DNA of 53,267 nt, the filler included, from Jimgerdemannia flammicorona (Eukaryota): NCBI GenBank assembly GCA_003990765.1. It is 2 parts of 2 records of this genome, joined end to end, with 100 filler letters (N's around TTAATTAATTAA, not from the genome) between each part and the next. Parts side by side here need not be neighbours in the genome. Positions count along the whole stretch, not along the records: positions 26,691 to 53,267 come from RBNJ01000717.1; 1 more part is not named here. One strand, written 5' to 3'. Positions 14,834-50,167 of the stretch are shown here, in pieces (within the stretch, counting starts at the first letter, position 1; each line of letters opens with the position of its first letter). The notes below the pieces were generated by a model. That model did not search any database and was not told the DNA's origin. It saw only the letters and a list, made by a program, of their open reading frames with translations. The position numbers and the translations under genes are program-made.

Positions 14834-14960
14834 TTTTGTAAAGATTAAGTAGTCTTTTTGTAAAGGTTAGGCAATCTTTTGTAAAGATTAGATAGTCTTT
14901 TGCAAAGGTTAGGCAGTTTTTTGTAAAGGTTAGACAGTCTTTTGTAAAGGTTAGATAGTC
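14834..14960. repeat. Minisatellite: 6 copies of a ~21-bp unit (TTTTGTAAAGGTTAGACAGTC)
   Basis: Directly visible tandem copies differing mainly by transitions, inside unclassified CpG-free DNA (about 12960-15330). Confidence 0.85.
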
Positions 14961-16445: not shown

Positions 16446-16449
16446 CTAT

Positions 16450-16638
<189 letters not shown>

Positions 16639-17931
16639 CAATTTTTTGGCTATTTATTATTTTCTGAATTAGTTTCAAAATATCATTTTTTTTAATCTCT
16701 TTGAATACTTATAAAACTCTTCTAATATTTCTTCAATGGTAATATTGTTATAATAAACTTATTTATAGTCTCATCTATAGATTGAAATAATTGGGGTCTT
16801 TGGCCATTTAGAATTTATTTTTTTCTAATCATTTCTCATTCAATAACTTATATCAGATAGAATCTGAGAGATAACTAGTAATATTTCAGATTTTTCATTT
16901 AAGTTCTTCTTTTAGTTATTCAGTTTAATTTAATAACTCTTTATTTCTCTCTTAGAGTTTATTAATTATATTGTTTATTATAATATTATATTTATTTTTT
17001 CACTTTAAACTGTCAAAGAAATACTCTGGATTTTGATATTTTTATTCAGTTATAGTATGAAAATGAAGAAAAATTTCCCATATTCTACCTAATTATGCTC
17101 CCAGCAGACACATCAAAGCCCTAAACATTTATCATCTAGAACCAGTGTCAATGATTTAAAAAATCAAGATTTCACTATAGTAGCCCTAGAACTAAATATT
17201 CAGTGGATCACTACTTTGTCTCTTAGTTGTTTTAGTTGTTAAAATTAAAATAACAAGGAAAAAAGTTACGAGCAAAGCGACAGCGAAAATAAATCAAGAC
17301 TAATTCCCAAGTGACGTCAATGTTCACTTTGTTTGGGTTTGTTGCAGCACGCCCATTAATGCATACCCATCTCGTATGTATGTATATGCGCTAAACTAGA
17401 TAGTCTCTCACAAAGACATTTGCTATCACACAAACGATGTTGCCCCGGCACATACCAGGGTACATCGGAAAAGGGGAATGGGAAATGAAGAAGACGGAGA
17501 AAACGAAGAGGTGGGAGGATGTTTTGGACAAGTAATCGAGACACCAGCTAAGAAGAGGTAGTTGGGATGATTTGTTCTTTCTACATGATGGATAAGTTGT
17601 CCCGGCATAATCATAACTTGTATAAGTAATAAAAAGGCCTTTTGTGATTGCATATTCATTTTGTCTGGTTTTGTTGCAGCACGCCCCATACATATAAGTA
17701 TATAAATTTATAATAATAAATTATAAATTATAAAATAATATATTAACTATTATTAATATAGGATAAAATAATATTTTATATTTATAAATTTAGATTTATA
17801 AAGTTAACTTTTTAATTCTTTATTTTTGAAATGAAATCCATTAATCAATATAGAACTCAGCTCAAAATACAAGCGATTAAACTGGGATGTGAGACGACTT
17901 CCGCGTTTTCATTGGCGATTAGCAATCTATC

Positions 17932-23900: not shown

Positions 23901-25060
23901 AGCATACGCACCGCAATTTTCGCATTTCTTTTTGGCGATAACGCGTTTGAGAAACTCGCCCATCACCTTCTTGCGTTCATCATTAATAAGTGTGACTTTG
24001 TAGGAACCAGTGCTGGAGCGTTCCGACAACTCTTCAGCAAGGGCGTGTTTCACGTAACAGTCTATGGGAAATAAATTGGAATTGGATCAAGTCAGACATA
24101 TTCAAAATTCTCTTGTCATGAGCGGATTTCTGGCAGTTATAGAATCGCCATCGATCACAAAATACTCACCAATCTTCCTCATAAAAGCGTCAGCTCCCTC
24201 CTCTTCGTGGTCTCCATCGTCTAGGTCTACATTTTCTGCAGCCTCCTCTTCCATCGCTTTCTTTTTTCCTTTCCCGATATGCGGTCGCAGTTGGTCTAGC
24301 CCCTGGGCCTCAAAAATTAGGCCATGTTGCAAAAGAGTCAATTTCGCAGCCAGTCTATGGGACTGATATTAGAAGACGGTAAACATATCAGTTTCTTGCA
24401 AGTGATATTCGAAATTTGTTCATAATCCCCTCTGTTCCAGAGGATTTGACTATACCTCTACTTTCCCCATACGAAACTTGTGACAGTAAAAGCATTTCGC
24501 ACGCAGTATGGCAAAAAGGTGGTTGAGGAACAGAGGGTTGAAAACGGGTACGGGAAGCTCAATGTGTCCAAAATGTCCAGGACATGAGAAATGATCAAGT
24601 TGACATGTAGCACAGCTGCATATAGGCAATCATATAAATAGAAATAGATGAGTGCGGTAGGATTGGCAATAGTTTTCGATTGTGTTATTCGCAAACGCTG
24701 TCCCGCAGTCCGTTCATTGAACAGCATCAAGCGTACCACGCCTGGTATACTTCCGCCAGTTGTTAGCACCCATGGTTGGAAGGTTCTTGTTCACATCCGT
24801 TAATACTCCAAATCACAGCTGTCATTCATATTGGAACCATCCGTCTCGAACCTCAGCAAGAGACAGTTTACATACATATGGTGTTTGTCATAAGGCCCGA
24901 GTGCAGGATCGTACAGACCGCCTTTGGTTGGATGATTTAGATTATCGAAAATTGTAGGATTAACAATTTGCTTGACGGATATCTTCTTGATTTCGTCAGA
25001 GTCGTAAAATGAGAAAGAGACCGAGGTGATCTCGGTCCCAAGTGGTCGCGCGATGTTCAT
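17932..25060 (-). CDS. RPA1: DNA-directed RNA polymerase I largest subunit (A190), about 19 exons
   Basis: Starts [19 protein letters not shown]. Contains GLYDPALGP, the [10 protein letters not shown] zinc site, [26 protein letters not shown], catalytic [10 protein letters not shown] (about 22390-22420), [44 protein letters not shown] and [12 protein letters not shown]. Ends [28 protein letters not shown] with the stop at 17932-17934. GT-AG introns can be traced between the ORF fragments. Confidence 0.97.
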
Positions 25061-25189
25061 GGTTGATTCTGTGGTGTGCAGAATTTTTTTTTTTCCTAAA
25101 ATAGGAAGATTTCTGATGTCACATCCTTTGTGACATAATTATATTACTTACGCGTGACGTTTTTTGTAATTCGCTCAGCCACAACATAA

Positions 25190-25227
<38 letters not shown>

Positions 25228-26057
25228 TTTAAAAAATTCTGTTTTGAAATTAATTAACAATTCTTAGTCATCTAAAACAATTTGCTTCACTAACTGAAAA
25301 AAGAGCACATACTACAGCAAACTCTAGTATATACTAAATTATTATAAATATCAAGTTTCAATATATATAAATATATATCTAATATTAGCTTTTTTAGAAC
25401 TAAACTAATTGCTCTATACTGTATAGTGAATTTGTCTCATCATTGTAGAGATAATTAGACCAATACAACCAGTTTGTGTAGCTTGGAAACAATACTTAAG
25501 GTTCTTTTATTTTTAGATATTTTATCTATATATACATATAAGATAATCTTAAATAGTAAGGTTCAGTATATAGATCTGACAATATACATAGTAGTTTTTT
25601 ATACCAAAGACTATAAAGATTGGCTACTAAAATTCAGAAAAATACTGTATTATTTGTAATATTGTCTATTATAATAGTCAAAATCTGTACTTAAAATTTT
25701 CAGTTAACAAATCTATATAAAAATAAATAACTATTAAAATCTATTTTGTTTTAATACATTCCTCAAAATACCAACTAGATGGTAAGCACTCTCTTTTTAT
25801 CTTAGTTGTGATACCAAGCTTCTGGATATAACTAATAAAAGTATCTATAATGTTTCTTCAGAATGAGAACCAGCAAGTTTGATGAAGTTAAGGGTAAGAG
25901 ATTTAAGTTATCAATTGAGGTTAATCTAATAACTAGTAATGTCTAGAAATAAAATTGTATTGAGAGATATCTATATATCAATCATAAATAAAATTCTGCC
26001 TGCTAAATTCTATTTATTAAATGTGAGATTAAATTAGTAAGCTCTTTATATATATAT

Positions 26058-26195
26058 TGTAATATGTCTGGCTCAATGGAGACAAATTACAAGATTGGGG
26101 ATTAATGTAGTTTGGCTTGAGCCCAGTTACTTTTAAAAGTAATAAAATATTCTTAGTGTTTAGTAGTATGTATAATAGTCAAGATCTGAATAATA
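26058..26195 (-). repeat. Inverted fragment of the 3' end of the LTR at 33588-34987
   Basis: TGTAATATGTCTGGCTCAATGGAGACAAATTACAAG...GTTTGGCTTGAGCCCAGTTAC matches the reverse complement of about 34835-34987. Confidence 0.85.
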
Positions 26196-26590
26196 CATGA
26201 GCAGTTTCCTTTTTGGGACAGGTTCTTAGATATAGTGGCAATTTGTGTATATAAATAGGTTTCCTTCTTGAGTCAACTGAGAATACCACAATTTGTGTTG
26301 CAAGGCAATTTCCAAAAGTATGCGATTTCTAGGTAATGGTCTTAGTATAGTGCACCGTACTTATACTCAACTTTTTCTATCTCCTTTTTATTGTATTTAA
26401 TAAAAAAATAAAAAAAATCGTAAATTGATAAAACATCCTATAAAGTTTAGTCAAATAGAGAGCTTTTTTTATTTTTACATATAATATTTTAATAAAAATA
26501 GTTTTTTTATTATTTTATAATAAATATTGAGACCAGTCACAATTTTGGCCTTAAATTAAAGCCAAATCACAAATCACTCGTCACAATTTC

Positions 26591-26690
26591 NNNNNNNNNN
26601 NNNNNNNNNNNNNNNNNNNNNNNNNNNNNNNNNNTTAATTAATTAANNNNNNNNNNNNNNNNNNNNNNNNNNNNNNNNNNNNNNNNNNNN
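26591..26690. other. Artificial contig linker (44 N + TTAATTAATTAA + 44 N)
   Basis: Exactly 100 bp and symmetric, with stop codons in all six frames. The flanking contigs are 26590 and 26577 bp. Confidence 0.97.
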
Positions 26691-29339
26691 AAAAAAAAAA
26701 AAAAAAAAAAAAAAAAAAGAAGATATCTTAGTCAAAGTCCTATAAGGACTCCTTCAAGGATAAGAAAGATCTGAAGAAAGAAGGCCAGCCAAAAAAGGGA
26801 AGAAGGACAGGAGTGAAATTCAAGACCTTAGTTCTAAATTTGACTGATTGGTTGGGCAGATTGAAAAACTCACTATATGTGAAAATTGGAGTTATCAAGA
26901 CAACAGAGAATACCCTCCACAAAGAAGCCAAGGTCACTTACCAAGAGATAATAGGAGGAAAGAAGGTACTCTGTCCAATACAGAGCCTAAGTTCAATACT
27001 TCTACTGTGGACAATTCAGACACTATGTCACTGAATGTAACAATAAAAGAAGTGACCAAAGGGACTTAGAACCACCAAACTGAAGGAATGATACTCAGTA
27101 CAAGAAGACTGAAGTTCATCCTGTTGAAGATTTCGAAGAAGCAAGTAACAGTGAAGACTACAATGATCTAGACTTATATCCTACTAAGGTTATTATCCAG
27201 AAAACAGTCTACCCAGCAGAAAAAAGGAAGAGACCTATTGGAAGGCCATCTAGGAATATCAGCAGAAGAATCATCCAAGAAGAAGACAAAGAACATGAGG
27301 AAGAGCAGGTAGAAATATCTCTCCAGACTCCCTCACCTTTTGTCTCCAAGACAAATAAGTTGCCACCAGAGGATGAAGAAATAGAACAAGAGGAATGTGA
27401 ACCTATTGCTCCAAAGCCCAAAAAGAAGTATATCCCAAAGACCATACCTAGAGATATCTATAATGAAGCCTGGCAGAAGATTCAAGAAGCCAAGATAGAG
27501 GTCCTCCTTTTGCAGTTCCTGCAACTAATACTAGCTGAAGTTTGAAACAAATTTCTGAGGACCACCAGGTCTAGTACCAGCCAAGTTCTCATCCCACAGC
27601 AAGAGCCAGCCCCCACACCTATCCAGGCTGCAGAGAGATATGTCAGCACCTACTTACATAGAGACATTGGAGGACAAAAGGTAAAAATTCTCATAGACAT
27701 AGGAGTAGCTATCTGTATCATTGCCAAATAGTTCCTAGATACCCTCCAATGGCCCATTGATAGACCATCCAACCTCAGCATCATAGTAGCAGATGGAGCC
27801 CAAACTCAACCCCTTGGAGAAGTATGGAATATCACTATTTCCCTTGGACACATTCAGTTCTCCATCTCAAAAGCTGTTGTCACCAAAGCTGTCACCTATG
27901 ACATAATTCTTGATATCAATTAGATGAAGGAAATGAATGCAGTTGTTGATATCAGTCAACAAGTACTCAAGTTTGACTACCAAGACAAGAAGTATAGAGT
28001 TAAGGTGACCAGCTATGAGCAATCAAAGAAGAAGAAGAAGATCACTCTCCAGGAAGAATATATCAGCAGTGAAGTGTCTACTATAGAGGAAGAAGAAGAA
28101 TCTGAAGATAGAAATAACCCCAGACTCAATCCCAGAATTAACCTAGTGGATGACAGACCAGAAGACAATATATGGGCCAAGAACACTGTCCCCATTACTA
28201 TTGGAGTCATTGCAGGAGAAATCAAAGAATGCCCTACCTGCCTCAAGAGACACAAGTGCCCTGAACACTCCTCCAAGATCATTGGGACAAGGAATTCGCC
28301 TGGCACAGTCTGCCCAGAGTGCAGAAAGAAGAAGAAGAAATGCAGACATGTTCTAGAAACATCTGCAGCTGAAGCTGCAGAAGTATAAGCAATTTGGGGC
28401 CAAGAATCATCTGAGGAAGAAGAAGTTCCTGATCAAGAAGTTCCTGAACAAGAAGTATCTGAAGAAGAGGTCCCCAAACTCATTCCCTGGGATGACTCTC
28501 ACTGGATACTACTCAAAGATGATGACCCTTGGAATATGGAAGAAGGACCCAACACAATCTCCATTATTCATAAGAAAGAAACTCACCAAGAGAAGGCATT
28601 CTGGCTAGGAAGATATCTACACCAAATGGTCTTCTACTCCCCCTGAGACTATTGCTATCAGTGTCATCTACTAGATCAGCAGGAGAGACAGAGACCCCAG
28701 AGACCAGAACCCCCAAATATAGTTACACATTGAACTACCTTCTAAGAAGTTTCCACTAAGTTGTAAAGTCAATTCAAAGAACAAGGCCTCTTCACCCAAA
28801 CAGAAGTATACTCTTTGTTTACTCTTCCCCCAACTTATAATCAAGATGGATACCAATTCACAAGATAATAAGAAATTAACAACTAGGAGCATCATTTCAG
28901 AGCAATGGGATATTATGTATAATCATAGAAGACACCCAGACTGCCAAGACTGCAGATATTAGAATATTCACCTCAGTCATGATATTGCAATCCACACTTT
29001 GAAGAGAGGAGATAACAGAGGTCAGATCTGAAGAAGCCAGATCAAGAAGCCAGAAAGAAGGACTCTTAAGATCTATAATTTAGAAGAAGATATCCTAGCT
29101 CTTATCAGACATGCAACTTGCCAAGAATAGATAGAAGATGCCACCAACTTCATGGAAGCCCTAGATCCACAGAAAGAAGAGGAATCAACTATCTCTAAGA
29201 CCCCTCTACTGGAGCCAGATAGCTACACCTCAACCTCAGAGTCTGGAGGCTCTCTACTAGTAGAGCTTTAGCCCTAGGACAGCCCAAACTCAGCAAGAAC
29301 ATTGCCCAGTATGCCCTGTTACATCCAAAGACCAAACCC

Positions 29340-29710: not shown

Positions 29711-32492
29711 TAAGAAGGAGGTACATCTTCTTCAAGTCAACCATCTCAAGAGGAATGTCCTCCAGCAAGTATACTGCCAATAAGCCAAACTGCACAAGAA
29801 TATCATCCTGGAGCCTAGAGAACAAACCACCTTCGAAATCTTTGCACCACCCAACCCCAGAAATTTTTTCTTTGAACCCAATGAAGATATCTCACACCTG
29901 GACATAGAAGGACACGTATTCCCCAACAAGATGAATCCAGTATATTCTCGAGTAACCAACTGAAGTTGGGAAACCATCATCTTGCCAAAAGGAACTATCA
30001 TAGGGCATCTGGTGCCTTTTCTCAGCCAAACTTATAGAGAAGTTTATGAACTAAACTTATCAAGAAATGGCAAAAGGTTCCAGAAGAAAGGAAAGGCCCC
30101 TCTGTGACCCAGGAGATAGTAAAGCCTTTCACCAATATTGAAGAAGAATTGACACCCCAACAATAGCAACAACTAGTAGAACTTCCCAACAAATATCAAG
30201 ATATCTTCACTACTAATTATGGCAACCTGCCATACAATCTATCATATTACCACAGCATAAATATACAAAATGCAACACCCATCCAGCAGAAACTCTATAG
30301 AATACCCCATTACTTGAAAACATTTGAAAAAGAGCACATTCAAGAACTCTTAGACAATGGAGTTATCTGACCCTCTACCAGCCCCTGGGCCAGCCCTATA
30401 CTTATTATACCAAAGAAAAGAAGATGGAGACTCTGTATAGATTACAGAAAACTCAACTCAGTCACTGAAAAGAATGTCTATTCTTTGTTCAGAATTGATA
30501 ATCTTTTGGATCAGTTATAAGATACCAGATACTTCAGCAGTATGGACCTTTTCACAGGATTCCATAAGATCTCCATAGACCCCAAAGACATTCAAAAGAC
30601 AGCCTTTCTTACTCTAGAAAAACTGTTTAAATATCTCTGAATACTCTTTGGACTTTGCAATACACCCCCCACCTTTCAGAGAATGATGAATTCAGTCTAT
30701 ACCCCCTTGATCCATCACTACCTGATTGTATATATAGACAATTTTAATATCTATTCAGTAAATTTTGAAGAACACCTGTACTACCTAGAGGAATTCTTCA
30801 AGCTCACCTGCAAGAACTACCTGAGACTCAATGTAAAGAAATACTATTTCAGAAAACAGAAACTTGAATTCCTTGGATTTATAGTTTTGAAAGAAGGAAC
30901 TCATACAGATTTAAAGAAAACTGAGAAGATTAACAACTGGTCAGTATCCAAGACCCTGAAGGAAACACTATCATTTCTGATACTAGTATCCTACTATAGA
31001 AGATTTATTAAGAACTTCACCCAAATCACTACCCCAATCTGAGTCCTTCTCAAGAAAGAAGTACCTTATAAATAGACAGAATTACAAGAAAAAGCCTTCA
31101 AAGAACTCAAGAACCACATGACCACAGCACCAATCTTTGTGTGCCCCAATCTATAGAAGCTATTTATCTTGTACACAGATGCTTCTAAAGATGGCCTAGG
31201 AGCAGTTTTAGCCCAAGAAAAATCTGACCAACAGTACTATATAATAGCTTATGCAAGCTGAGCTAATTAGCAGCAGATGAACTATAGTAGCACCAAACTG
31301 GAATGTCTTGCAGTCATATGAGCAGTCACTCTGTTCAAGTATTACCTCATCAGAAAAAGATTCAACCTGATCACAGACCATATAGTCCTCAAATAACTAT
31401 TCAACTGCAAGAAACCTACCAGAATCCTAGTTTGCTGGATCCTTATTCTTCAGGATTACAAAATAACCATTATCTACAAAGTAGGGAAAGCTTACAACAA
31501 TATTGATATACTTTCCCACCAGCCCCAATAAATCAGAAAAAGGATGTTCTGAGGAACTACACCCTAAAGGAAACTCCTCAGACCATTAAGACACAAGAAG
31601 ATCTCATCTGAAAAGAACATCAAAAAGCCCATCAAGGATAAGTAAACATAGAAAAAAAGTTGTGAACAACATACCAACATTGGCCCAATCTCAGAATACA
31701 AGTCTGTAACATACTCAAGAAACGTGACACCTGCCAGAAGTACCAAGGAAGGAAGAATTATCAAGCACCATTGCAACCAATTGTACCACTAGACAACATC
31801 TTTCAGAGATAGAGAGTAGATATAATTGGACTCCTACCCATTACACCAAGAAGAAATAAATATATTCTTATATTTATGGAATATCTAACAAAGTGGCCTG
31901 AGGCTTTCCCAATAGAAATCACAGATGTTTTAACCATTGTAAGCCTTCTCCATAGACTCACACTCAGATATGGACTCCCAGAAGAACTTATCTCCAACTA
32001 AGGCACAGAATTCATCAATAACATAATCACAAGTTATACCCAAATTTATAAGATCCACCTCAAACAGACTATATAATATTACCCTCAGACCAATGATATG
32101 ACAGAAAAAATGAACCAAACTATCAAGAAAGGACTTGCCTGAATCAATCCTACCAACTGAGATCTCTGCTTATCTGAGATTCTATGGGAAATTCAGAACA
32201 CCCCTGCTATCTCTATAAAATAAAAGCCATTCAAAATGATATTTGCCAAGAAAACCAGAACTGCTGACTATGAGAATCTTGGAGACTTCCTCAAGAAGGC
32301 AGAACAGTTACATAATCAGGCCCAAGTTCAGATTACCAAGCCCAAGAAAGACAAAAGAAGTACTATGACCAGAAACAGAAGGATCAGAAGATCAAGATTG
32401 GAGATCAAGTACTAGTTTGAAGAAGCATGATTGAAACAAACTTTGCTGCCAAATTGGAGCCCAAATGGGAAGGATCTTATCTTGTATATAAC

Positions 32493-34987: not shown

Positions 34988-36108
34988 CTATATAGGCTAT
35001 TAAATACTATAATTATATCGAAAATTATATAGTTACTCTTAAGATCTAAGTACAGATCTCAGTAGAGTGAATTCGGTTACATGCATATCATAACTGTAAT
35101 TGATAATCTATAAATTTGAAATGTTAGTTTCTCAAGAAAGGATCAATTTTGAGATGAGATATGCACCACCTTGAGAAGAACAACATTTCAAATAGAGAAC
35201 TACAAAAAATCGTCGTTGAAGTCGTTAGACAGTTAGGGACGAAATTGTTTAACAACCAATGCCGAGTATGCCGGACGAATAATAGGTAAACAAGGTGACC
35301 CAAGCCATTGTCGGAATTGCGGGCGTGGAAAATAGAGGATGGGTTCAATAGGAACATCGCCGGAGATCATAGAACGCCCGGCGACAGGTTGCTCATCTCA
35401 ACTCACAATCGCCGAGATGCCTACACGAGCGGAAAAGAGATGTGAGTTCACTTTCTTCAGCTTCGGCGACATTACCTCTGCAAGGTGTTGTCATTAAGCA
35501 TTTTATGTGAATAGTTTCGGGGCTTGACAAGACAGACAAAGCTGTAACATTCATCTTAGATATTGGGTCATATAAAAATAGGCTGTAATTAAGCAGAAAA
35601 GACCAAGATAATTATGATGCCATGTCAAAGCTTGGTTTGCCTTTGCTCAGAAGTACAAAGACTAGATCAACAATGACTGAAAATGTATCATATTCTCTGA
35701 TGAGACTAAGATTAACTGCCTAGGATTATACAGATAGATATGGGTGTGAAAGAAGTCTAGTGAGGGACTTACTGATTGTCTAATGATGGTCATAAAATTT
35801 CTATCCATTATATTACATTTCCAATATTGGGATGCACTGATAAGTAGATAATAATTTATTTGAAATCATTTAAAATTCGCAATAGTTTACATAAACGGCC
35901 TTCTCGGCTGAAACTTTCGATTCCAAAAAACTATTCCACAGCAGCTTCCATTCGTCAAGGCTTCCAAAATAATTTTTCTGATCGATTGTTCGAAGATTTG
36001 CTGGGCGGAATCTGCGCCAAAGTAGTTTTACGCCTTCCAGAGAGTGATATCAGATTTAGCAGGACAAAAAAAATGGCCCATGAAATACATATCAACTTGG
36101 AACAAATA

Positions 36109-39100
36109 TTACCTGGCTTGCTTTGGTGCAGAAGGCACCACGCTTCTTAAAGTGGATTTTGTGTATAACCGACTGCGTGAACTTTCTACGAGCGTGGACC
36201 TCGACCCGGAGGCGATCGCGGCTTGTATTTTTTTAAGATGTGCCGAGGCTTCAGGGGTGATGTTCCGCCAATCTTCTGTTTCTATGCCTTCAAGATCACA
36301 CAACACCTTGTCGATGGTCGGGCGCATTTCGGGGTCAGGGTTCCAGCATCTCATATAGATATCAGAATATTCGGTCGGTGTTCCCGGGATGGGTTCTTCG
36401 CGCAATCCAAGGGCGGCAGCATCGGGAGGATTGATTGCATTTCCTCGAGGACAGAATCTTGCAGTAATTTGCCATAGAATTGTTCCAAGACAGTATATGT
36501 CAGATTTTTGTGTATAAGACACAATGATCTCCTTGAATGCTTCCGGTGGGAAATACTCAATCTGCCCGTAGATGTGACTACCATATTTTTGAAAGTGTTC
36601 GACAGTATTGCTTATACCAGCATCAATGATCATAGGGTTTAAATGGGTGGTATCTAAAAACACAATATTTCCGGGATGCAAGTCACCGTGGATCAAACCT
36701 GCTTTGTGAATCATTTGCAACCTGCGGGTGATCTCGGTAGCAATCTGCCACACTTTCAACCAGGAATTTAGTGGCGATATAGTGAGGAGTTGTGTAAGAT
36801 CACCACCAGTAGCGTATTTCATCACCAAAATGTAACAGCCAGTTGTATCATCCATCGATAATCCTATGACTGTGGGCACCGCTGCACTCTGGGAGTTATT
36901 GTGGATCTGAAGGTAGATGTTGACTAGTAGCTATTTGTAACAAGAAAAATGAATTATCATAAAAATTAATTGTAAACATTAAACTTTAAATTTGTAACAG
37001 AATAAGTGAAACCCACCTCATATCGCAGTTGATCTATTACAATGATACTCCGTTTCAATATCCTCAAAACAACAAACGTTTTCCGTTTCTGATTATCATA
37101 CACCATGGCTTTGTATACAGTTGCAAATTCACCTTCGCCCAACTTTTCTATCAATGTGAATTGGCGGTAAGGTATCCAAAATATGCAACCTGCAACCTCA
37201 ATCATTCGTAGCATTGCCAGGCACTGAAAGAGCTTATCCTCGTCACCGGGAAACTTGGATTTAAGCATTGACAGAATACCGGCATCAGATGTTTTAAGAA
37301 TAGCTTGAATCTGATCAAAAGTATAAGGGACCTTGGTGGAAAGATCATTTGGAGGAGGCGGCGAATAACTTGAAGCTGTCCATTAAAATGAGCAAAAATG
37401 TAAATATTGTAAACTGTATCCCTGAAACCATAGATAAACATAGTTCTAACATACCAACGCGGGTCGCGTTTCGATTCAAAGCATCACCAAGGAGGCGTGC
37501 GGTTTTGATAGTGATATTGTTCCCTACATATAAAAAGGGAGGGGTGAATGCACACGGACAAGCCATGAGTTGGAGGCCATCAGGTAGCTACAAAACCACA
37601 TCTCACAGTTTTAATATACCAATAATATGAAGCGTTTTCAGAGTCGTGTTCTGCATCAGAGATTCGGTCAGTGCCTGTGCTCCCTCATCGCTGATATTGG
37701 TGTCTAAGAAAGAATAACGGATGGATGAGCAAACACGCCTATGTTATGAGCAGTATCACGGAGTTCTATACAAAAATTCACACAGTTCTAACATACGATT
37801 GAGATTCAGCATAAATAGGGTCACATTTTTCTTCAAAGTTTCGGCCAATGCGCGTGCTCCCTCTGCACCGATGATATTAGCTGAATTCAAACAGAGAATA
37901 TATATTCAAGAGTAAGCAAGTTGAGATAAAATATATGAAATAGCTGCAAACAAGCATTCATACAGTCCAAACATACATTGAAGATTAAGCATCGTCAGGC
38001 TCGTGTTTTTCTTCAGAGATTCGGCCAGTACGCGGGCTCCCTCAACGCCAATATTGTTGTCTGAAGATAAAATAAGATGGGCGATATCCATTTCATGAGC
38101 TGGAACCTACCACGCAGTTGCATACTAAAAATTACACAGTTTAAACATACAGTTGAGATTCAGCATTGTTAAAGTTTTGCTCGATTTCAAAGAATTGGCT
38201 AGAGCGCGTACACCCACATCGCCGATTTTGTTGCCTAACGATTAATAGGAGATAGATGAGCCATAACCACAATGTCAGCTGGAACTCATTATGGAGCGGA
38301 AAATAATTATTCCCCCATTTATAACATACGATTGAGATTCAATATAGATAGGGTCTTGTTTTGCGTTAGAGATTCGGCCAGTGCGCATGCTCCATCTGCA
38401 CCAATATTATTGGCTCATGGCGAAAAAACAAATAAGCTGGTTGGGAGCTTTAACACAAGAAAGAGTTTCAAACAACTGTTCAATAGGTCAAACATACATT
38501 CAAGATTAAGCATGGTCAGGGTCGTGTTCTTCTTCAGAGAAACGGCGAGTGCGCGTGCTCCCTCAACACCAATGTCGTTGTCTGATGAATGAAGAAAATG
38601 CAAAAATTGTTAGCTGGCTTTCACCAACCAGCTGCAAAGAACAGCAATGTAGTTAAAACATACGAATGAGTTCCAACGTAGTCAGGATCCCGTTTTGCTT
38701 CAGCGACTCAGCCAGTGTTTGTGTTCCTATAGTACTGATCGTGTTAACTGAAATTGAAAACAAAGCGGTGAGCTAGAACTCATTAAGCAGCGGCAAGCCA
38801 CAGTTGACACAGCCCTAACGTACAATTAAGATTCAGTGTGGTCAATGTCGTGTTCTGCTTCAGAAGCTCAGCAAGTGCATATGCTCCCTGGACACCGATA
38901 TCTTTGGCTGAAGATGAATAAGAGATAGTGGATTAAACACGTATAAGCGGTGGGTTGGAATATATCACACAGCAGCAAACTACAGTTCACATACTTCTCA
39001 TACCTCTGAGATTCAGCGTGGTCAGGAACGTGTTGTTCTTCAAGGATTCGATCAATGCACGTGTTTTCTCGCCACTAGTTCTTTTATCTGAACACCACGT

Positions 39101-40891
39101 GTAAAGGGTTAGCTATATTTCAGTGCAAACTGTTCCAAAACACAGTACGCACCTGAAGGATCACCAAACCACAACTCGAAATTGGGGTTTGGCTCGAACA
39201 CCAAAACGGGAGCCTGCTTGTCGGTAGAAACGTTCCTTGAGTTCAATCCTTCCGATGTCGAGGTATCTAGCGCGCGTTCAACAGATTTACAACAAGCGTC
39301 AACATCCGAAATCGGAGCTTCTTCGAAGCTGGTGGTCGTCCCGTCGATGTCTGTAATGGTAATCAAGGGGATGCTATGGGAGGCTGCATGGGGGGGGTGC
39401 GGGGAGAATATTTGGGAGATGGTGGCTGTCGGCTCTTTTGGCTCCGGAGAGGCCATTTGGGATCTTTTGGCATTCAAAGTTTTCGGCTGCGAGGAGTGCA
39501 TTTGGGAGGTATTGGCTGGCTGCGGGGGAGACATTTGGGGGATATTGACATTCAACCCTTCTGCTAGTGAGGAGAGCTCCCAAGGTTGTGGTGGAAATAG
39601 TGACTCTTCACTATAGGCAGAAAAAAGGGAATGCTGGGTCAGTGAACAAGTGGAATAAAAGCAAATAGATAGAATGTGTCAGTGTCATACCAAAAGCTAT
39701 AAAATGGGATGTCATTGTAAAGGATGAAAATGATATACTTCAAGCAATTCACTAGTGGAAGCCCGCTGCTCAGGATCTCGTTTAAAGCATAGGTTCATGA
39801 AATCCTCCAGCTGGCTGTTCAAATTCTCCGGATAGGGTGGCCGACCTTGCTCAAAAATTTTTCGCTTCATCTAATATTAAATTGTATAATCTTATATATA
39901 AATAATTAATTGATATATAGTGCAACAAGACAATGCTCTGATAAAAGAATCTGAAAACAATAAACCTCTTTATCTTCTAGGTTGTCATCTTCATAAGGCG
40001 CCTTGCCGTGGTTAAGCATCTCAAGAACTACGATGCCTAATGCCCAAATGTCAGCCTTTAGGTCGATGACCTCGCCTTTACAAACTTCAGGAGCCCAAAA
40101 TAGTATGACGCCAGCATTTTCGACTGACGAGTCCACAGTAGGCGCCGAGGAGCTGACGCCGAAGTCACCTGAATGAGTGATTAAGTGAGATTGAGGGTAA
40201 GAGGATAAGTAGGAATTAGCATTGGAATGTGCGAAGCCTCTCAAGATGATATAATTGTACAACGTATTTACCAATCACAATGGTGTTGTCTTTGCCAAGG
40301 AAGACGTTTTCACATTTAATGTCGCGATGGATGTAACCGTGCCTATGAATTTCCGAGAGGCCTGACACAAGCTGCGGTATTTGTGTTAGCCGAATGGCAG
40401 GATTGAAGGACGAGGCACGAATTATTTGGGGTGGTTCCAAAACGCCATACATCGTACAACATATCTTAAGGGGTATAAAGCACTATACTGACCCCTTTGA
40501 GGATAAAGACCATTTGCGACAAAGAGACGCGGTTGACGGAGCAATACTCTTGCAGGGTCCCGCCGTCGTAGTACGGCGTTATGAGAAAGACGTAGCCTTC
40601 GTAGATGTGGACGCTGAGTAGTCGCAGAATATTTGAATGTTGGCATTTGGCCATGGTGTCTATTTCGGTTTCAACGAGCTCCTTGGGCATTACAACGGTT
40701 TCCGAGTCCTTGCTGTACACGATCAAGTACTTTTTGATGACCACAATCTGTCGCGCGCCGCTGACTTCGTGGCACAGGTACACACTGCCCTGTGCCGAAG
40801 GCCATGTGGGTTTTATGGCGCTGAGGCCCGCATAATCGAATTGCGGATCAGAGAAGTGTATGGGGACGCCCTCTATTAAATGATCCGCCAT
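36109..40891 (-). CDS. Dual-kinase LRR protein of about 1,100 aa: STE20-like kinase, P/S-rich linker, 10 RI-like LRRs, TKL-like (pseudo)kinase; 17 exons
   Basis: Hand-traced GT-AG exons in one frame: 40891-40493, 40371-40272, 40168-39966, 39870-39739, 39633-39153, ten LRR exons between 39087 and 37455 (or 37440), 37375-37017, 36930-36109. Kinase 1 has VVIKK, HRDIKCEN, DFG, WAPE, DIWALG. Kinase 2 has WIPYRQF..IEKLGEGEF, HGDLHPGNI, DAG, YFPPE, KSDIYCLG, RCWNPDPEMRP. The N-terminus may extend by a few small exons. Confidence 0.85.
37440..39087 (-). repeat. Array of one-LRR-per-exon cassettes
   Basis: 84-nt exons at 39087-39004, 38907-38824, 38747-38664, 38581-38498, 38413-38330, 38234-38151, 38060-37977, 37880-37797 and 37703-37620, plus 37523-37455 (or 37440). 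Consensus xNxIGxEGARALAESLKKNTTLTxLNL. Confidence 0.92.
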
Positions 40892-41391
40892 GTGCTTGGG
40901 ATGGAGGACGTCGTTTAGGTTGATGAGTTTTGACTAAGCGTCACGTGAACAAGAAAATAAGTTGGTGTGGCTTGGTCTTTGTGCGTACCGGAAAAGTCGT
41001 CTCTATCGCAACCTGTCAAGCCTGGAAAGTGACCTATTCTACGCGGATTCCTCTAGTAGCCCACACCGAAAATCAAATACGTCAAATCTGGGCTATATTG
41101 CTCCTGCAACCTAATCCATTTTTAAAGCACTGCCCAAGTTTACGGGGATATCTATAGAAGCACTTGGCTTGTGTATAGCGGTAAGTGAAGTGTATGGATC
41201 CCTTCCGCCATTGTTCAACATGAATTGCACCATATATCCACAAATGTGTCAGGAAACCACTTCGAATTAACATGCTTCATTAAAGACAAACCATATCACA
41301 AATGTAATAAAGAAAAAAAAAAAATACAAATGTACAGAATATTAGTTAAATATAATTAAAATATTTATTAAAGTTATTATTTATAATGAAT

Positions 41392-41847
41392 TGTTATATA
41401 TAAGCCACTAGAATTTCTGATGGAAATTCTGATGAAAATTCCTATGATAATTCTTATAGAATTTTCAACTAATAGTCATAGATACCAAATATAGTATAAC
41501 TATATATATATACTCAATATACTATATTTAATCATAGCTTCAAATCTGTATAAATATTCTTTATACTGAGTATATTATAATCTAGCTCTATACTCTCTGA
41601 CTATATATAAGAATAAAGCAATATTCTTATTATAGAACCCTCAGATCCAACTTGTTAATGATGCTGAGCCTGATCAACTTGGGATATAAGTATGACTCTT
41701 TTACTAATATAAGAACTCAAAAGTAATACTTAGACTACATCATTACAACAGGCAATTAGAACTTAGTACTTTCCTACAAATATTTAGAACTTAGAGCCAA
41801 TAGTTATCTATAATATATTAATTCTATCAGTATATTGTTTTATTATA
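41392..41847 (+). repeat. LTR (TG...TA, decayed CA end) followed by a PBS-like ATTTGATAGTAG
   Basis: Homologous to 11970-12427 and starts TGTTATA. Confidence 0.75.
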
Positions 41848-43347
41848 ATTTGATAGTAGTAAAAGTTATTTCTATCTAAAAGTAAGTTTTTCTTAAGAAA
41901 CTTACTATGAATATAGACTACTTAGTTAATATCACTAATATTATTAGTAATAACTAAAGAATACCTTTATTCTGACTACTCTTTAGAACTAAGCTAAAGA
42001 AGCTAATAGATCATTACTGAGTAGACTGAGACCTATACTAGCTAAGAGAAATTCAATAGACTCAACAATGAAATTATTCAAGAAGTATTCAATATATTTA
42101 TCATATTTAATAAAGAAGTTATCTATACTTAAGAAATTAGAAAGAAATTCAAAGATTAATTAATAGCTACTTTTATTAAAAATATACAAATAAGTCTATT
42201 GAAGTTATAAGTAAATATTTTCTAAATCTTCTCTCTAATAACTACTACTATAAAACCAAGACCTTTCTAAACTACTAGGAATATTATACCAACTAAAGAA
42301 AATTCTACCTCTACTACTAAGTCCTTTATATATAAGTAAAGATAATTCAATTATGAGGATTAATAACTACTAGACTCACTAAAGTCTCTGCCATATTATC
42401 TTAATCTAGAAAAATAATTGAAAAAATATCTAAACTCAACAATAGTGACTTCAGTACTACTATAGACCCATTATTAAGAATACTAAATTTACTGAAAATT
42501 ACTGTAGAAGATCAAGCAATAACTTGATTAAAACTACCAATCTATAGACTAGTTATTAAGTTCACCTATCTTGATAATATATAAAAGAAACAACTAAATA
42601 TTACACTATCTCTGATATAATAGTATTTAAAGAAAGACTACTACTATTTTACTATATAAGTAATAGAATGATATTAGTAGATAAAAAGATAGTAGCTCTG
42701 GCTGACTAAGTGATCATACTTATCCAAGCCCTCTACCTTAGTATCAAAACAAACAAATCTACAAAAGACCACTACCTTATATCATTTAAAGGTAAAGCAG
42801 ACTAAGTAATAATATTTATAAAATAAGTTAATACTAATTAATATGATAATAGATAGAATAATAATTAGAACTCAGATAGTATCTTTAATAATAATAAGTA
42901 TTATAATATTGAAGATCTCTATATAACTATAGACTCATAAGTAGAAAAATCACTATCTATTTCATAAGTATAGCTGCTCAATAGTGATACAATCTCTCAA
43001 TATTCTCTTATCTGAGAAACCTATATTGAAATCAATATAAGTGAAGAAGATAATAATTGCTCTAACTATAAAGTCTACTCAGCAACTATGAGCATAAAGG
43101 AGCTGATCATCCAACAGTTCTATAGCTCTATCTATATTGCTAAAGCCAGAACCAAACTCAAGAATCTCTAATTCTATAATAATAGAAAAGAAGACTTAAA
43201 AACATTCATAATAAGATTCTCTCCTGAATACTATAGAGGTAGAATATAGCTGATAAGAACAAACTGTGAATAGAACCAGAGCAGTATACTTCTTTAATGC
43301 TATTTCTGAATAATTATCAGAAAAGATATAAGAGCAAGGATAATTAT

Positions 43348-44964: not shown

Positions 44965-47900
44965 ATGGAAATACATCCCCTCACATTCTATAGATATACT
45001 ACTAAAGAGTCAATCCTGACCTTCATTAAAGACTTTAAACAATTTGCCACTATATGAGCCCTTGGTATAGATGCTCAATTGGCCCTTCTACTAGTCAGCC
45101 TCAGAGGACCTACCAGAGACAAGTTCAATGCAGTCACTATTGCTGATGCTGGTGCAGCCAAACTTGTCAACATGAAGGCCTTCCTCAGAACAACATATTA
45201 TACTGAAGAGATCAAGCAAGCTCTCAAGAATCAACTCAATACTATCTGCCAGAGACTTAGTAAAGATTCCAACCCATTCTATACCCAAATCTGCCACCAG
45301 ATTATCTTGGCTGGCTATGATGACTGCCTCAAGGAACAAATAGCAGATTCAACCTTCCTCAAAGGAGTTCACCCTGAAATTGCCCTAGCAATCTGGTCTA
45401 CCTCAGCTGCACTGACCCTTGATCAGAAAGTGGTCTTTGTATAGAGATATTGGACTACCAGACATCCTGCTGAATACTTAATAGAGAAAATAACTGGTAT
45501 TAAGATGGAGCCATCAAAGCTAACTAGTATCATACCTACCACAGTTGTAAACAGACAACCAACCCCACCTACTCTCAAGACAGCCAAAGCTGACCCAGTG
45601 GAAGAACTTGCCAAGCAGTTCACTGAGATGATTGCACACCTTGGTGATGTTGTTAGAGAAGTCTGAAGTGCCAACAGAAGACCAGTATAGAGATTTGCAG
45701 CTGCTACAGAAGAATGCAATATCATATACTTCAGATGTGGAGAAGAAGGCCACTATGCAAAGAATTGCATGACTGAAACAAGATGCAAAGCCCAACCAAG
45801 CAATGCTAGCAGAACCAGAGAACAAACTAATACAGTAGTTATCGAGGAGATTGGTGACACTGATGATAAAGAATACTATGAGGAGCTCAAATTCTACCCT
45901 GCTACTGAAGGTACCAGAACCTGGTCCAAGCCCTATGACAAGAAGAGCAACAGCAAGCCAGTTGGAAGACTAAAGAAGACCCCAGCTGTCACTATTCAAA
46001 GTAAGACCCAATCTGAGGAGATTGATCAAGATATAGAGTTAGATAAAGCTGCCCACCAAATCATTGAAGGCACTCCTCCAGTCTCAAGAGAAAGTGAAAG
46101 CAAGAAGGAACAGAAGCTGTACAAGACCAAGATCTACTAGTATGATATCTACAAGGACCTCAAGAAACAGAAGGTCAATGTCACCTTTGGACAGCTAGCT
46201 GAAGTCCCTGCCTTCAGACAGCAGTTGAGAGTAGGACTTGCAACTACTGCCAAGAATTAAGAGTACAAGATTTTAGAAGCTCACAATGTACAGGAAGAAT
46301 CTGAGAACTCAGGTGAAGAATCTGAAGACCAGTGCAAGACATCAGCCTATACTCCATGTCAGATTGAAGACTGTATCTTTGATGCCATCATTGATACTGG
46401 TGCTGGAGAATGCCTCATGAGCAAGAAGACAATTGACCACCTAGGTTGGGACATTGAAGAGTCCACCAAGATGGTCTATGTTACAGCAGATAGTATATGA
46501 GCTACCCCCCTTGGCAAAATCTGAGAAGTCTCCATCAAGATAGGAGGAGCTACCATCTCAGTAGATGTGATTGTCACAAGTACTACCAACTATGACATCC
46601 TCATTGGCAACCAATGGCTTTACAAGGCCAAGGCCATCATTGACCTCAATGCCCAGAAGATGCAGATCAACTATAGAGGAAGAAAGATATGAGTCTCTAT
46701 CAATGTTCACAAAGGAGTCCTATCAGACATAGAGGAAGGAGATGAAGAGGACACAGAGGTCTTCATGTACTTGGTGAACAAGAATAAGAACAAGACACCC
46801 AAGCTCACAGATGAGCAGTGGTACAACAAGATTATCAATGGGTATGCCCCTCAAGGAAGATGCCCCCATGGTACTAGGATATACTGCACTGAACACCTGA
46901 ATGACTACTGGTCCTATATCAGTGAAGTTAGGAAAATCTGTCAACAGAAATATGAGCAAGAAGCCACTGAAGCAAGAAGGAAAGCTGAAGAAGATAACCA
47001 ACCCCCAGAGCTTCAGGCTGACAGTGATGATGAGGAGGAACAAGAATCAGACATCACTCTCAAGGTTAAGAAGTTTCACCCTGAAGCCAAAATCCCAGAA
47101 TATAAGACTGAAGGAGCCATAGGAATGGATATTGCCAGCATTCAAGATGCTACTCTTGAACCACAGACCACCACCCTACTTGGCACTAGAATTGGAGTCA
47201 AGCTGCCAGAGAACCATACCAGAATTATCAAGACCAGAAGCAGTCTGGCCAAAAGCGAAATCTCAGTTAAAGGAGGAGTAATTGACCCTGATTATACTGG
47301 TGAGATCTTTATCATAGTCAGGAATCACAACCCCACCACCCCATTTGAAGTCAAGAAGTATGACAGGATTGGCCAGATGCTGGTCCACGAAATCAAGAAG
47401 CCCAAGATCATAGAAGCCATTGAACTCATCATGACCAAGAGAGAAGAATAAGGCTTTGGATCTACTGGAAGAGGAGCCTATGCTGCCACCAAGATTACTG
47501 AACTTGAGCACAAGAAAGACAAGGACCAGAACAAGCATATATACACTATTGGAGAAAACTTTCCCCTAGAGGAATAACTTCTCAAGGTCCTGCATCAGAA
47601 TGCTACAAACTTCCAGGATATCTACAATCAAGAACCCAAGCACTACTATAAAGTTGACACTGGTAATACCAAGCCCATCTACCAGAAAGCCAGACCCATA
47701 CCACCTGCCTACAGAGAATGGCTGTGAGCAGAACTCAAGGAAATGGAAGAAGCTGGAATCATCAAGCAAGCTATCAGCCCCTGGACCTCACCCATTGTCC
47801 TTGCCCCAAAGAAAGGAAGCAAGCCTGGAGAGTTTGCACCAAGACTCTGTATTGACTACAGGAAGCTCAATGCCATCACCAAGAAGGATAGGCAGCCCTT

Positions 47901-48942
47901 GCCAAATATTCAAGAAATTCTTACTACCCTTGAGAGTGAAGCCAAATACTACACTACCTTGGATCTGTTCTCAGGCTTCCATCAGATTGGTCTCACTCAA
48001 GATGCCAGTGAGAAATCAGCCTTCATTACACCTGATATCACCTATATCTACCTGCGAATGCCATTTGGAATATGCAATACCCTAGCAAGTTTCCAGTGAA
48101 TGATGAACAGAGTCTTTAGCAATGAGATTGGAAAATAGCTCTTTGTCTATATTGATGATGTCAATTATATACAGCTAGCCCTCAAGAAGCTCAAGGAGCA
48201 TAGCCTCTACATCAAGCCCAAGAAATGTAAGTTTGCAGCTCAAGAAATCACCTATCTAAGACACCTCATCAACCAGACTGGAATCCACACAGACCCTATA
48301 AAGATTGAGGCTGTTGTAGCCTACCCAAGACTCAGAACAACTACAGAAGTCCATGCCTTCCTTGGACTGGCCAGTTACTACAGAAGGTTCATCAAAGGAT
48401 ACTCCAATATTGCAGCATCCATCTATGAGCTACTGAAGAAGGAAACCAAATTTGAATGGACCAAGGAGTACCAAGAAACCTTCAATGAACTCAAGACCAG
48501 GTTGACCCAAGCACTTATCCTCAGAAGACCAGACTGGAATCTAGAATTCATCCTGCAGACAGATGTAAGTGCTATAGGACTTGGAGCAGTCCTAGCTCAG
48601 AAGAAAGATGAATATGAATATATTATCTCCTATGCAAGCTGAGGTACCTGTAGAGCAGAACAAAACTACAAGTTATGTAAGCTTGAATGCTTAGCAGTAG
48701 TTTGGGCAGTAGACAAGTTCTACTACTACCTAGCTGAGAAACACTTCACCATTCAAACAGACTACTCTGCTCTTGCCTGACTATTCTACACTCTGAACCC
48801 CAAAAGAATATATACCAGATAGATCTACAGACTGTAAGAGTATGACTGTACTGTCAAGCACTACTCAGGAAGAACCAATATCAATGCTGATGCACTCTCA
48901 AGGACACCCTGAAACACCCCCAACAAGACCATTCAATCATAA
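44965..48942 (+). pseudogene. gag-protease-dUTPase-RT-RNase H polyprotein of element B, single frame with premature stops
   Basis: ORF fragments starting at 45079, 45769, 46765 and 47743 share the frame of ATG 44965 through DALSR at about 48900. Confidence 0.9.
47053..47469 (+). pseudogene. dUTPase domain of element B, between protease and RT
   Basis: AKIPEYKTEGAIGMDI, KTRSSLA, GGVIDPDYTGEIFII, DRIGQ, REE*GFGSTG. Confidence 0.95.
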
Positions 48943-50167
48943 ATAAGGAGCTATACTATGGATTAATCAGCTATCTTAGGCAGGGGAAGATGTCCAACCA
49001 CCTTGAACCCTGGATAATCACTATTATCAACCAGACTTAGAAACAGTTTGAACTAGACAATACTACACTTAGAAAAGGAGAAAACTAGTAATATCTGAAC
49101 ACAAGAAGTATTATGTAATGAAGGAAGTATATGAGCAAGGACACCTAGGAGGAACCAACACATATGACAAGGTAAGAAGAACCATATAGTGGCCCAAGAT
49201 GGAAGAAGATCTGTGCCAATTTGTCAAAGGGTATGACAAGTGCCAAAAACAGAAATAAGATCAACAAGACCAGGCACCCAAGTCATCAAGAATTGAGCCT
49301 ATCTCCTTCCACCACATCACAATGGATATCATTGGGCCACCAGCAGTAATACTATCAGGAAACTGCTATATTATAGTTATTGTAAACCTCTTCACCAAAT
49401 GGATAGAGGCAGGAGCATTACAAGAAGCCAATGCTCTCTCTATAGCTGACTTCCTGTACCGAGAAATCATCTGCCACTACAAGACACCAAAGCAAATCAC
49501 AACAGACTGCGGCATAGAATTTGCTAATGGATTCCACAAGATAATATATCAGAAATATAAGATCCAGCACATCAAGACCACTGTATATCATTTTCAAGGA
49601 AATGGACAGATAGAGAGAACTAACAAGACCCTTAAGAACATCTTAGCAAAGATCTCAGAGATATATGAGAATTGAGATAACTATCTCCCAACCACCCTCT
49701 CTGTCCTACAAGATATATGGTCACAGAGCACACACTTTACCCCAAGGGAGCTGCTCTTCAGAGAAGAAGATTCTGATGGAACCTCAGTTATAAATCTAGA
49801 CCTAACTTAGAGACTGGTTGATGCAGAAATCCAGAGACTACACCAAATCAAGAAGAAGGCTGAAGATTACATCATCAAGTCACAAGCGCTGACAAGGAAG
49901 AATGTGGAAAAGAATCACAAGGCCCTAGAATCCATCCAAATTGGAGAAAAGGTTCTACTGTATCAAAATATAGTAGAAGCCTCATGGTCACGAAAACTGG
50001 AGCCCAAATGGAAAGAATCCTTCTACATATAAGATATCAAGAGAACTACCTTCTAGCTTAGAAAAATCTCAGAGACCATACTGACTATCATGGTACATAG
50101 GAACAGACTCAAGAAGTACCACAAACCTATACAAGAGAAGCAAAATGTGATATATAACCACTCATGA
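48939..50167 (+). pseudogene. Integrase of element B (no chromodomain seen)
   Basis: HHCC region GHLGGTNT...WPKM...DKCQ, DDE core in ORF 49322..49675, then KLEPKW and VHRNRLKKY. One frameshift near 49075. Stop TGA at 50165-50167. Confidence 0.88.

Follow-up and report, generated by a model that had tools for sequence, protein, structure and literature searches.

A spliced gene of the fungus Jimgerdemannia flammicorona places NOD-type leucine-rich repeats between two kinase domains of different groups

Leucine-rich repeats (LRRs) and a protein kinase share one chain in LRRK2, a soluble protein whose LRRs lie N-terminal to a tyrosine kinase-like (TKL)-group kinase and whose LRR domain shields the kinase site. 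The plant tandem kinase proteins WTK1/Yr15, Rpg1, Sr60, Lr9 and WTK4 are described as intracellular immune receptors (PMC8761531, PMC10260399, PMC13478195); these accounts present them as soluble, with two kinase domains of which one is commonly a pseudokinase, and sometimes with an integrated extra domain. For fungi, two reviews describe the intracellular receptors as NOD-like receptors (NLRs) carrying WD40, TPR, ankyrin or HEAT repeats and deem LRR sensors a solution of animals and plants (PMC10197012, PMC12258605). Kinase genes and LRR domains are reported to be common to Glomeromycotina and Mortierellaceae fungi and their Mollicutes-related endobacteria (PMC10507103), and tyrosine kinase-like genes to be expanded in Rhizophagus (PMC4219462). 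Here we analyze a locus of Jimgerdemannia flammicorona, a fungus that belongs to the Endogonales (Mucoromycotina), not to the Glomeromycotina. It lies in a stretch of 53,267 nucleotides (nt) joined from two records of assembly GCA_003990765.1, hereafter the window, in the part that comes from RBNJ01000717.1. An earlier note, written from the sequence of the window, had read positions 36109-40891 as a single gene for a candidate cytosolic sensor of non-self or symbionts, with LRRs between two unrelated kinases, and had remarked, as both reviews state, that fungal NLRs mostly use WD40 or TPR domains rather than LRRs. We find one transcribed and spliced gene of 18 exons, whose product of 1131 amino acids (aa) runs from a STE20-like kinase through ten LRRs to a TKL-type kinase.

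The transcript evidence consists of contigs from two public runs, X1 and X2, mapped on positions 35500-41500; the runs contain 0.58 and 0.45 of the sampled words of the stretch, and that they are RNA is a guess. Splicing from the linker to the first LRR (39087/39153) and from the last LRR to exon 16 (37375/37455) had been set beforehand as the test of the one-gene reading, and the contigs of both runs are spliced at both places. In all, 15 joints are listed, each found in both runs at a predicted exon border and each bounded by CT..AC on the plus strand and hence by GT..AG on the strand of the gene. A sixteenth junction, 40371/40493, was deduced from adjacent record coordinates and is absent from the joint list, and support for the seventeenth (38060/38151) is indirect. 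There, the 3′ contig of both runs continues past 38060 with an 11-nt overhang that equals plus-strand positions 38151-38161, the end of exon 11; these 11 nt occur once in the 53-kb window and are unlike the genomic intron sequence that follows 38060. The 5′ contig of X2 exceeds exons 1-11 by 19 nt, with no loose end reported for it, and the two X2 contigs (1857 and 1666 nt) together exceed the predicted 3493-nt mRNA by exactly 30 nt. For these contigs we take k to be 31, in which case 30 nt would equal the k-1 overlap of neighboring contigs; in X1, a gap of 14 nt separates the two contigs. The outer ends nearly coincide between the runs, at 40907 (X1) and 40910 (X2) on one side and at 35878 (X1) and 35877 (X2) on the other, a weak hint that they are the ends of the transcript. 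Measured to these contig ends, the 5′ leader spans 16-19 nt and the 3′ untranslated region (UTR) about 78 nt, to about 35877. Taken together, the contigs strongly support one mRNA across all 18 exons, and we consider it very probable that the locus is one expressed gene with a kinase-LRR-kinase architecture.

The spliced contigs also corrected the 3′ end of the gene model. Chaining frame-keeping GT-AG introns on the minus strand reproduced the 17-exon, 1106-aa open frame of the earlier note, from 40891 to 36109. The TAA that closes this frame, at 36111-36109, falls within an intron (36112..36034) for which the GT at 36112-36111 serves as donor. Because the apparent stop is intronic, the coding sequence extends into an eighteenth exon, ends at 35955-35957 rather than at 36109, and stays open for 3396 nt in full. 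All introns are GT-AG and 65-121 nt long. The coordinates of the gene and its parts are collected in Table 1.

Table 1. Parts of the kinase-LRR-kinase gene, in positions of the window
Feature	Position	Strand	Evidence or details
Whole transcript	35877..40910	-	Spliced-contig coverage; ~3.49 kb once 17 introns (1541 nt in all) are removed
Coding sequence, 18 exons, 1131 aa	35955..40891	-	ATG 40891-40889, stop 35957-35955
Exons 1-4, PAK/STE20-like kinase, aa 1-278	39739..40891	-	Pfam, PDB ranking, motifs
Borders of exons 1-4	40891-40493, 40371-40272, 40168-39966, 39870-39739	-	
Exon 5, 160-aa Ser/Pro/Thr-rich linker	39153..39633	-	Composition; no family match
Exons 6-15, ten RNI/NOD-type LRRs	37455..39087	-	One 28-aa repeat per exon
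Starts of LRR exons	39087, 38907, 38747, 38581, 38413, 38234, 38060, 37880, 37703, 37523	-	
Exons 16-17 (37375-37017, 36930-36113), pre-kinase helical region and TKL-type kinase	36113..37375	-	
Exon 18, coding part: last 26 residues and stop	35955..36033	-	Joint 36032/36112 (cut +1, CT..AC) in both runs

Six of the seven non-LRR exon translations match kinase families in Pfam, and the linker matches none. The families found in these seven translations at an expectation value (E) of 0.01 or below are Pkinase, PK_Tyr_Ser-Thr, ABC1, APH and RIO1 only; neither a NACHT nor an NB-ARC domain was detected in them, the linker included. Because both are absent, the protein, judged by its domain content, is not an NLR: the repeats are the one defining NLR feature that is present. 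In a hydropathy scan of the translation with 19-residue windows we found no transmembrane-like segment or signal peptide. The two highest windows, at 1.64 and 1.61, fall in kinase helix F and in the charged pre-kinase helix, so that even the top value sits inside a kinase helix. The sequence thus bears out the view that no transmembrane segment exists, and the protein is likely soluble and cytosolic.

Exons 1-4 are collinear with the Pfam Pkinase family, at profile positions 12-93, 108-137, 141-201 and 223-258. Compared with the PDB by way of a public protein that covers this part (P0011, below), the N-terminal kinase finds PAK1, PAK2 and PAK3 in its best 18 rows (E 1.7e-27, for PAK1, to 2.8e-26), followed by PAK4-6, MST3/STK24 and SLK. 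In a structure atlas, the neighbors of a paralogue, P0013, are likewise PAK2/3 and SLK clusters. Both results back the STE20-like assignment that the sequence had first suggested. The domain keeps its catalytic residues, namely the lysine of VVIKK (K53), HRDIKCEN (aa 148), DFG (aa 168) and the APE motif (WAPE). Its glycine loop is degenerate (TWPSAQGSV): against GQGASGTV of PAK1, one of the three glycines of GxGxxG remains, the third. This odd loop is a family trait, not decay, because P0013 has it too. The gene family further differs from PAK kinases in that no p21-binding domain was found, Pfam detecting only kinase families in P0013. The linker that follows in exon 5 contains 24 serines and 20 prolines among its 160 residues and is taken to be disordered.

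Nine of the LRR exons measure exactly 84 nt and one, the last, 69 nt, and each of the ten is in phase 1. The consensus of the nine 28-aa repeats, NxIGxEGARALAESLKxNTTLTxLNL, fits the 28-29-aa period of the ribonuclease inhibitor (RNI) type and its LxxLxLxxNxIGxxGaxxLaxxL pattern. A profile of these nine repeats matched eight PDB sequences at E ≤ 0.01, the best being 5irm/5irl at 1.2e-16, which is the structure of NOD2 (PMC4906405). The next matches were Ralstonia GALA LRR proteins, TCTE1/DRC5 and tropomodulin. Consensus and best solved structure agree in this way with the NOD/RNI-type label that the repeats had been given at first. Searched as single exons with Pfam LRR_6, six of the ten gave half-profile matches (E 0.0012-3.3), all under the 23.4-bit gathering cut-off, in which exon starts cover profile positions 13-24 and one exon end covers 1-11; such split halves are what would be expected if spliced exons complete each repeat. 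At the DNA level, the LRR exons are 49-86% identical to one another, and the introns between them 53-74%, mostly near a shuffled baseline of 57 +/- 3 (shuffle maximum 65). Because the exons stay alike while most introns have drifted to near this baseline, the array, by this comparison, is an old tandem duplication in which the exons were kept.

Other LRR sequence is present among the contigs as well. In run X1, five of the 13 mapped records lie, within 37600-39050, only partly on LRR exons and continue into unlike sequence, and these contigs are much deeper (bins of 127; joint depths of 46 and 183). This suggests that other expressed genes with near-identical LRR stretches exist.

At the C-terminal end, exons 16-17 match PK_Tyr_Ser-Thr at profile positions 2-38 and 58-257 (E 1.7e-20 for exon 17), exon 16 containing only the pre-kinase region and the N-lobe of the kinase. 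The best PDB relatives of exon 17 are RIPK4 and RIPK1, then NEK2, MLK1 (MAP3K9), TAK1 and TNNI3K; RIPK4, RIPK1, MLK, TAK1 and TNNI3K are TKL-group kinases. With PAK1/2/3 nearest to one domain and RIPK4, RIPK1, MLK, TAK1 and TNNI3K nearest to the other, the two kinases of the chain are of different groups, as the earlier note had held. The pre-kinase region ends in WIPY, and the kinase keeps a GEGEF glycine loop, HGDLHPGN (aa 914) and DAG (aa 936). Its beta3 lysine is replaced by Arg818 (VVLRIL), a codon in which no allele difference is listed. A beta3 Lys-to-Arg change is the usual kinase-dead mutation in other kinases, and on this single change the C-terminal domain may be a pseudokinase.

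We compared this domain with its relatives in an alignment of 18 sequences, the window's included. The aligned family shares a pre-kinase region of about 50 aa ending in WIP, an H.DLHPGN loop and a conserved tail, with D(V/I/A)G in place of DFG and PPE in place of APE. Where a residue is present in the beta3 column it is lysine in 12 of 14 sequences; arginine occurs only in the window's sequence and in a protein of Endogone sp. FLAS-F59071 (P0001). The catalytic-loop aspartate is kept in 16 of the 18, among them the window's, and the aspartate of D.G in 18 of 18. A HMMER search with exon 17 returned 99,575 representatives at E ≤ 1e-3, 3,395 at ≤ 1e-10 and 91 at ≤ 1e-30, with a top identity of 59%. 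Ten of the best relatives were looked up and seven are named, from Gigaspora margarita (two), Gigaspora rosea, Diversispora epigaea, Endogone sp. and J. flammicorona (two). Endogonales members are 30-59% identical to the window's domain, Glomeromycotina members about 32%. On these alignments, the C-terminal domain is part of a TKL expansion of Endogonales and Glomeromycotina, and its Gigaspora and Diversispora relatives agree with the earlier note, which had linked the HxDLHxGNI motif to TKL kinases expanded in Glomeromycotina.

The relatives differ from the J. flammicorona gene in what accompanies the kinase. All 15 long relatives that were scanned hold two to ten kinase stretches each, and extra domains among them are Sel1 in two and MLKL_N (in P0021, from Diversispora), TLDc (P0025), Ras/Roc (P0030) and DUF7580 in one each. 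LRRs were absent from 17 scanned proteins at E ≤ 1e-6 and RNI-type LRRs from the 150 closest relatives of the kinase; a hidden Markov model (HMM) of the window's repeats, which by construction recovers all nine repeats used to build it, found no LRR in 162 proteins at E ≤ 1. Examples of the expansion from Endogone sp. (RUS13961.1, P0016), J. flammicorona (RUS29268.1, P0040) and Gigaspora margarita (KAF0414656.1, P0014) share with our domain the WIP region, the H.DLHPGN loop, D(V/I/A)G and the tail. They belong to a family that is tandem TKL-TKL or joined to Sel1, MLKL_N, TLDc or Roc among its long members, whereas here the partner kinase is of STE20 type, RNI LRRs are present and the beta3 lysine is arginine. 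In the Endogone protein P0001 (719 aa), the TKL module stands behind an N-terminal caspase-like Peptidase_C14 domain (a precomputed assignment), and both the beta3 lysine (to Arg) and the catalytic-loop aspartate (to Asn) are replaced, so that it qualifies as a pseudokinase more clearly than does the domain in the window. It is likely, from these combinations, that our C-terminal domain is a member of a TKL module prone to shuffling.

In the public gene models, the layout of this gene cannot be seen. When longer proteins were sought with exon 1, three matches were obtained, all from J. flammicorona. Two of them, P0011 (286 aa) and P0012 (a partial protein of 358 aa), match exon 1 at 100% identity and reach no farther than the N-terminal part. 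Each conflicts with the spliced contigs: the P0011 model runs into intron 4 up to a stop, and the P0012 model omits exon 3, takes another acceptor for exon 5 and halts at the end of that exon. Exon 16 occurs in no public protein of at least 210 aa (117 candidates, none at E ≤ 0.01), and no public protein of at least 479 aa exceeds 54% identity to exon 17. We conclude that the full kinase-LRR-kinase layout is missing from the protein collections searched and is hidden by truncation of the models. The third match is the paralogue P0013 (456 aa), with 67% identity over exon 1 and a linker that resembles ours. Its end resembles read-through at the border equivalent to intron 5, suggesting that this locus may also run on into LRRs. 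An atlas structure search with P0013 returned generic kinase clusters only, and no LRR architecture.

Outside J. flammicorona, we scanned metagenome contigs of the Joint Genome Institute with exon 17 and obtained 46 loci of 27-47% identity, most of them on contigs of 1-2 kb. In one of the 46, L027 (soil, 1508 nt), the repeat HMM matches downstream of the kinase on the same strand. The L027 kinase is 36% identical to the window's C-terminal kinase, with an apparent frame change, and is followed by no fewer than two LRR exons whose borders are canonical; one of these is exactly 84 nt and ends in phase 1 as in the window. The order in L027, TKL kinase and then LRRs, is unlike that of the window, and the contig ends soon after. 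A tblastn search of the 46 loci with the N-terminal kinase found nothing beyond generic matches between kinases, at 24-30% and in the same places, and a search of prokaryote genomes with the C-kinase alignment gave 14 pattern stretches, none of which was confirmed.

The novelty claimed for the architecture holds in part. Joining of LRRs and kinases is not unprecedented in Mucoromycota, because it has already been reported there (PMC10507103). For a fungal STE20-LRR-TKL layout, or any kinase-LRR-kinase layout, we found no description in the literature searched, which leaves most subscription journals outside. The reported proteins, named 'PknD with LRR', resemble ours in that a kinase lies next to LRRs or is joined to them in genomes associated with Mucoromycota, and their source names a similarity to fungal tyrosine-type kinases; the account, with which we compare by description only, mentions no two-kinase layout where it treats them (PMC10507103).

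Other known systems share single features with the gene. Like LRRK2, the protein is predicted to be soluble with LRRs N-terminal to a TKL kinase, and LRRK2 serves as the template for the autoinhibition proposed below. It differs from LRRK2 and other ROCO proteins in that no exon holds a Roc GTPase or COR domain (Pfam), exon 16 directly following the last LRR, in that its LRRs are of the 28-aa RNI type, and in its extra STE20-like kinase. As in plant tandem kinase proteins, two kinase domains stand on one chain, the second altered at the beta3 lysine only. The plant proteins are of RLK/Pelle origin with adjacent kinases, whereas here ten LRRs separate kinases of STE20 and TKL type; since kinase types and arrangement differ, the two layouts would be of independent origin. 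Plant LRR receptor kinases differ as well, the protein having a kinase at its N-terminus and neither signal peptide nor transmembrane helix. The best solved matches of the LRRs and of the C-terminal kinase recall the pair of NOD2 and RIPK2, a likeness that extends to repeat class and kinase group only; NACHT and CARD domains are missing here, and the parts are on one chain.

The contigs of X2 differ from the window at 23 listed positions, one in the 3′ UTR and 22 coding. Fifteen of the coding differences are non-synonymous, seven are synonymous and none introduces a stop; nine of the differences fall in the linker. The listing excludes places less than 31 nt from the ends of a piece, and at least three counted differences are unlisted. 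For this reason we dropped the idea of unusual conservation of the LRR array between alleles. No difference is listed in the array, but with no more than about 225 nt of its exons open to listing, a count of zero is unremarkable.

Around the gene, the window holds remnants of transposons. Decayed parts of a long terminal repeat (LTR) retrotransposon lie at 45691-49675 (+), where zf-CCHC, dUTPase, RVT_1, RNase H and integrase core (rve) domains follow in order in several frames, and a lone decayed RVT_1 fragment lies at 30641-31042 (+). The location between transposon blocks described at the outset is accurate in this sense, with decayed retroelements at 30.6 kb and at 45.7-49.7 kb. Farther away, exons of a gene for the largest subunit of RNA polymerase occupy 19437-24086 (-), with RNA_pol_Rpb1 domains 1, 2, 3 and 5 at E down to 4e-37. 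Blocks of 17-32% G+C, at 1-1000, 11000-17000, 25000-27000 and 41000-43000, alternate with genic stretches of 40-53% G+C, and in the G+C-rich left part two open frames, 4964-5656 (+, 230 aa) and 8893-9504 (-, 203 aa), have no Pfam match.

In our preferred reading, to which we assign a probability of roughly 0.6, the locus is a single genuine nuclear gene, expressed and spliced, and encodes a soluble signaling protein that acts as an LRR-gated two-kinase switch. The LRR horseshoe would bind a protein or other ligand and act as an autoinhibitory element, gating or targeting the kinases in response to an upstream signal. The N-terminal STE20-like domain is proposed as the catalytic output, feeding a mitogen-activated protein kinase (MAPK)-type cascade in the manner of a MAP4K, because Lys53, HRD, DFG and APE are kept. 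The C-terminal TKL domain, with its beta3 arginine, would serve mainly in regulation or docking, as a (pseudo)kinase paired with the N-terminal kinase or phosphorylated by it. As a mechanism in exactly these steps, the switch is tentative, and we would sooner expect it to need revision. Several points weigh against the reading as a whole. The switch leans on analogy to LRRK2, plant tandem kinases and NOD2-RIPK2. No single molecule spans both kinases, each run being represented by two contigs that break at the border of exons 11 and 12, and the library type of X1 and X2 is not on record, so that a processed DNA copy is formally possible. Activity of the N-terminal kinase is not assured, two of the three GxGxxG glycines being lost, and the C-terminal kinase, which retains all catalytic residues save the beta3 lysine, might still be active. 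Finally, the listed differences give a dN/dS of roughly 0.6 on 2610 non-synonymous and 783 synonymous sites, which indicates weak constraint between the alleles.

Three other explanations deserve comparison. That the locus comprises two or three separate neighboring genes, a 286-aa kinase gene and unannotated genes downstream, is what one would read from the public proteins, with P0011 and P0012 ending in the N-terminal part, exon 16 in no long protein and exon 17 at no more than 54% identity. It is already contradicted by the splicing of exon 5 to the first LRR and of the last LRR to exon 16 in both runs, and the two public models themselves disagree with the contigs; we give it next to no credence. 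A young and effectively neutral chimera is harder to set aside. A STE20-like kinase, an LRR array and a TKL gene would have been brought together by transposon-mediated or tandem rearrangement, to be transcribed and spliced with no selected function while both kinases decay. The retroelement remnants on both sides fit such an origin, as do the degenerate glycine loop, the Lys-to-Arg change, the predominance of non-synonymous differences (15 of 22) and the lack of such LRRs in the 150 closest relatives of the C-terminal kinase. Yet the 3396-nt, 18-exon frame is intact in two alleles with 17 of 17 introns canonical, the odd glycine loop recurs in P0013, the LRR exons have stayed 49-86% identical while most introns lie near the shuffled baseline, indicating an old array with its exons kept, and metagenome contig L027 has the same type of kinase beside the same kind of LRR exon. 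Neutrality is, on this evidence, very unlikely.

An immune role is somewhat easier to entertain. In this reading, which goes back to the earlier note, the protein would be an innate-immune-type cytosolic sensor without a NACHT domain, its NOD-type LRRs detecting a non-self, endobacterial or host-plant molecule and its RIPK-like and STE20-like kinases passing on a defense or cell-death signal. Among solved structures the LRR profile is nearest to NOD2, and the C-terminal kinase to RIPK4 and RIPK1. The TKL module is elsewhere fused to domains of death or defense type, namely Peptidase_C14 in P0001, MLKL_N in P0021, Roc/Ras in P0030 and TLDc in P0025, and the idea is plausibly compatible with these partners as with the NOD2-like and RIPK-like best matches. 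The gene is also lineage-restricted, has at least one paralogue, sits in transposon-rich surroundings and is weakly constrained between alleles, and members of the Endogonales are reported to harbor Mollicutes-related endobacteria (PMC10507103). Against this, there is no nucleotide-binding oligomerization domain, death fold or amyloid motif, Pfam being empty in the linker, and the likeness to NOD2 and RIPK goes no further than the generic RNI-LRR and TKL folds. We consider such a sensor unlikely, and still prefer the two-kinase switch.

An early-diverging mycorrhizal fungus thus transcribes a gene with NOD-type LRRs between two kinase domains of different groups. A bolder form of the sensor idea would place the protein in a new class of fungal intracellular receptors that lack a nucleotide-binding domain, in which NOD-type LRRs between a MAP4K-like STE20 kinase and a RIPK-like pseudokinase let mycorrhizal Endogonales sense endobacteria, host-plant molecules or conspecific non-self. 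We regard this as distinctly unlikely; if true, the animal NOD-RIPK axis and plant tandem-kinase receptors would have in this protein a single-chain counterpart that arose by convergence. Should the gene prove merely another shuffled member of the TKL expansion, it would still tell us that domain shuffling in this expansion reaches beyond tandem kinases, and that RNA is needed to guide the correction of gene models in these genomes. If the protein does sense something, it would add a kinase-based, NACHT-free type of receptor to those of fungi, and would offer a handle on signaling in the Endogonales, a lineage with ancient plant symbioses and endobacteria.

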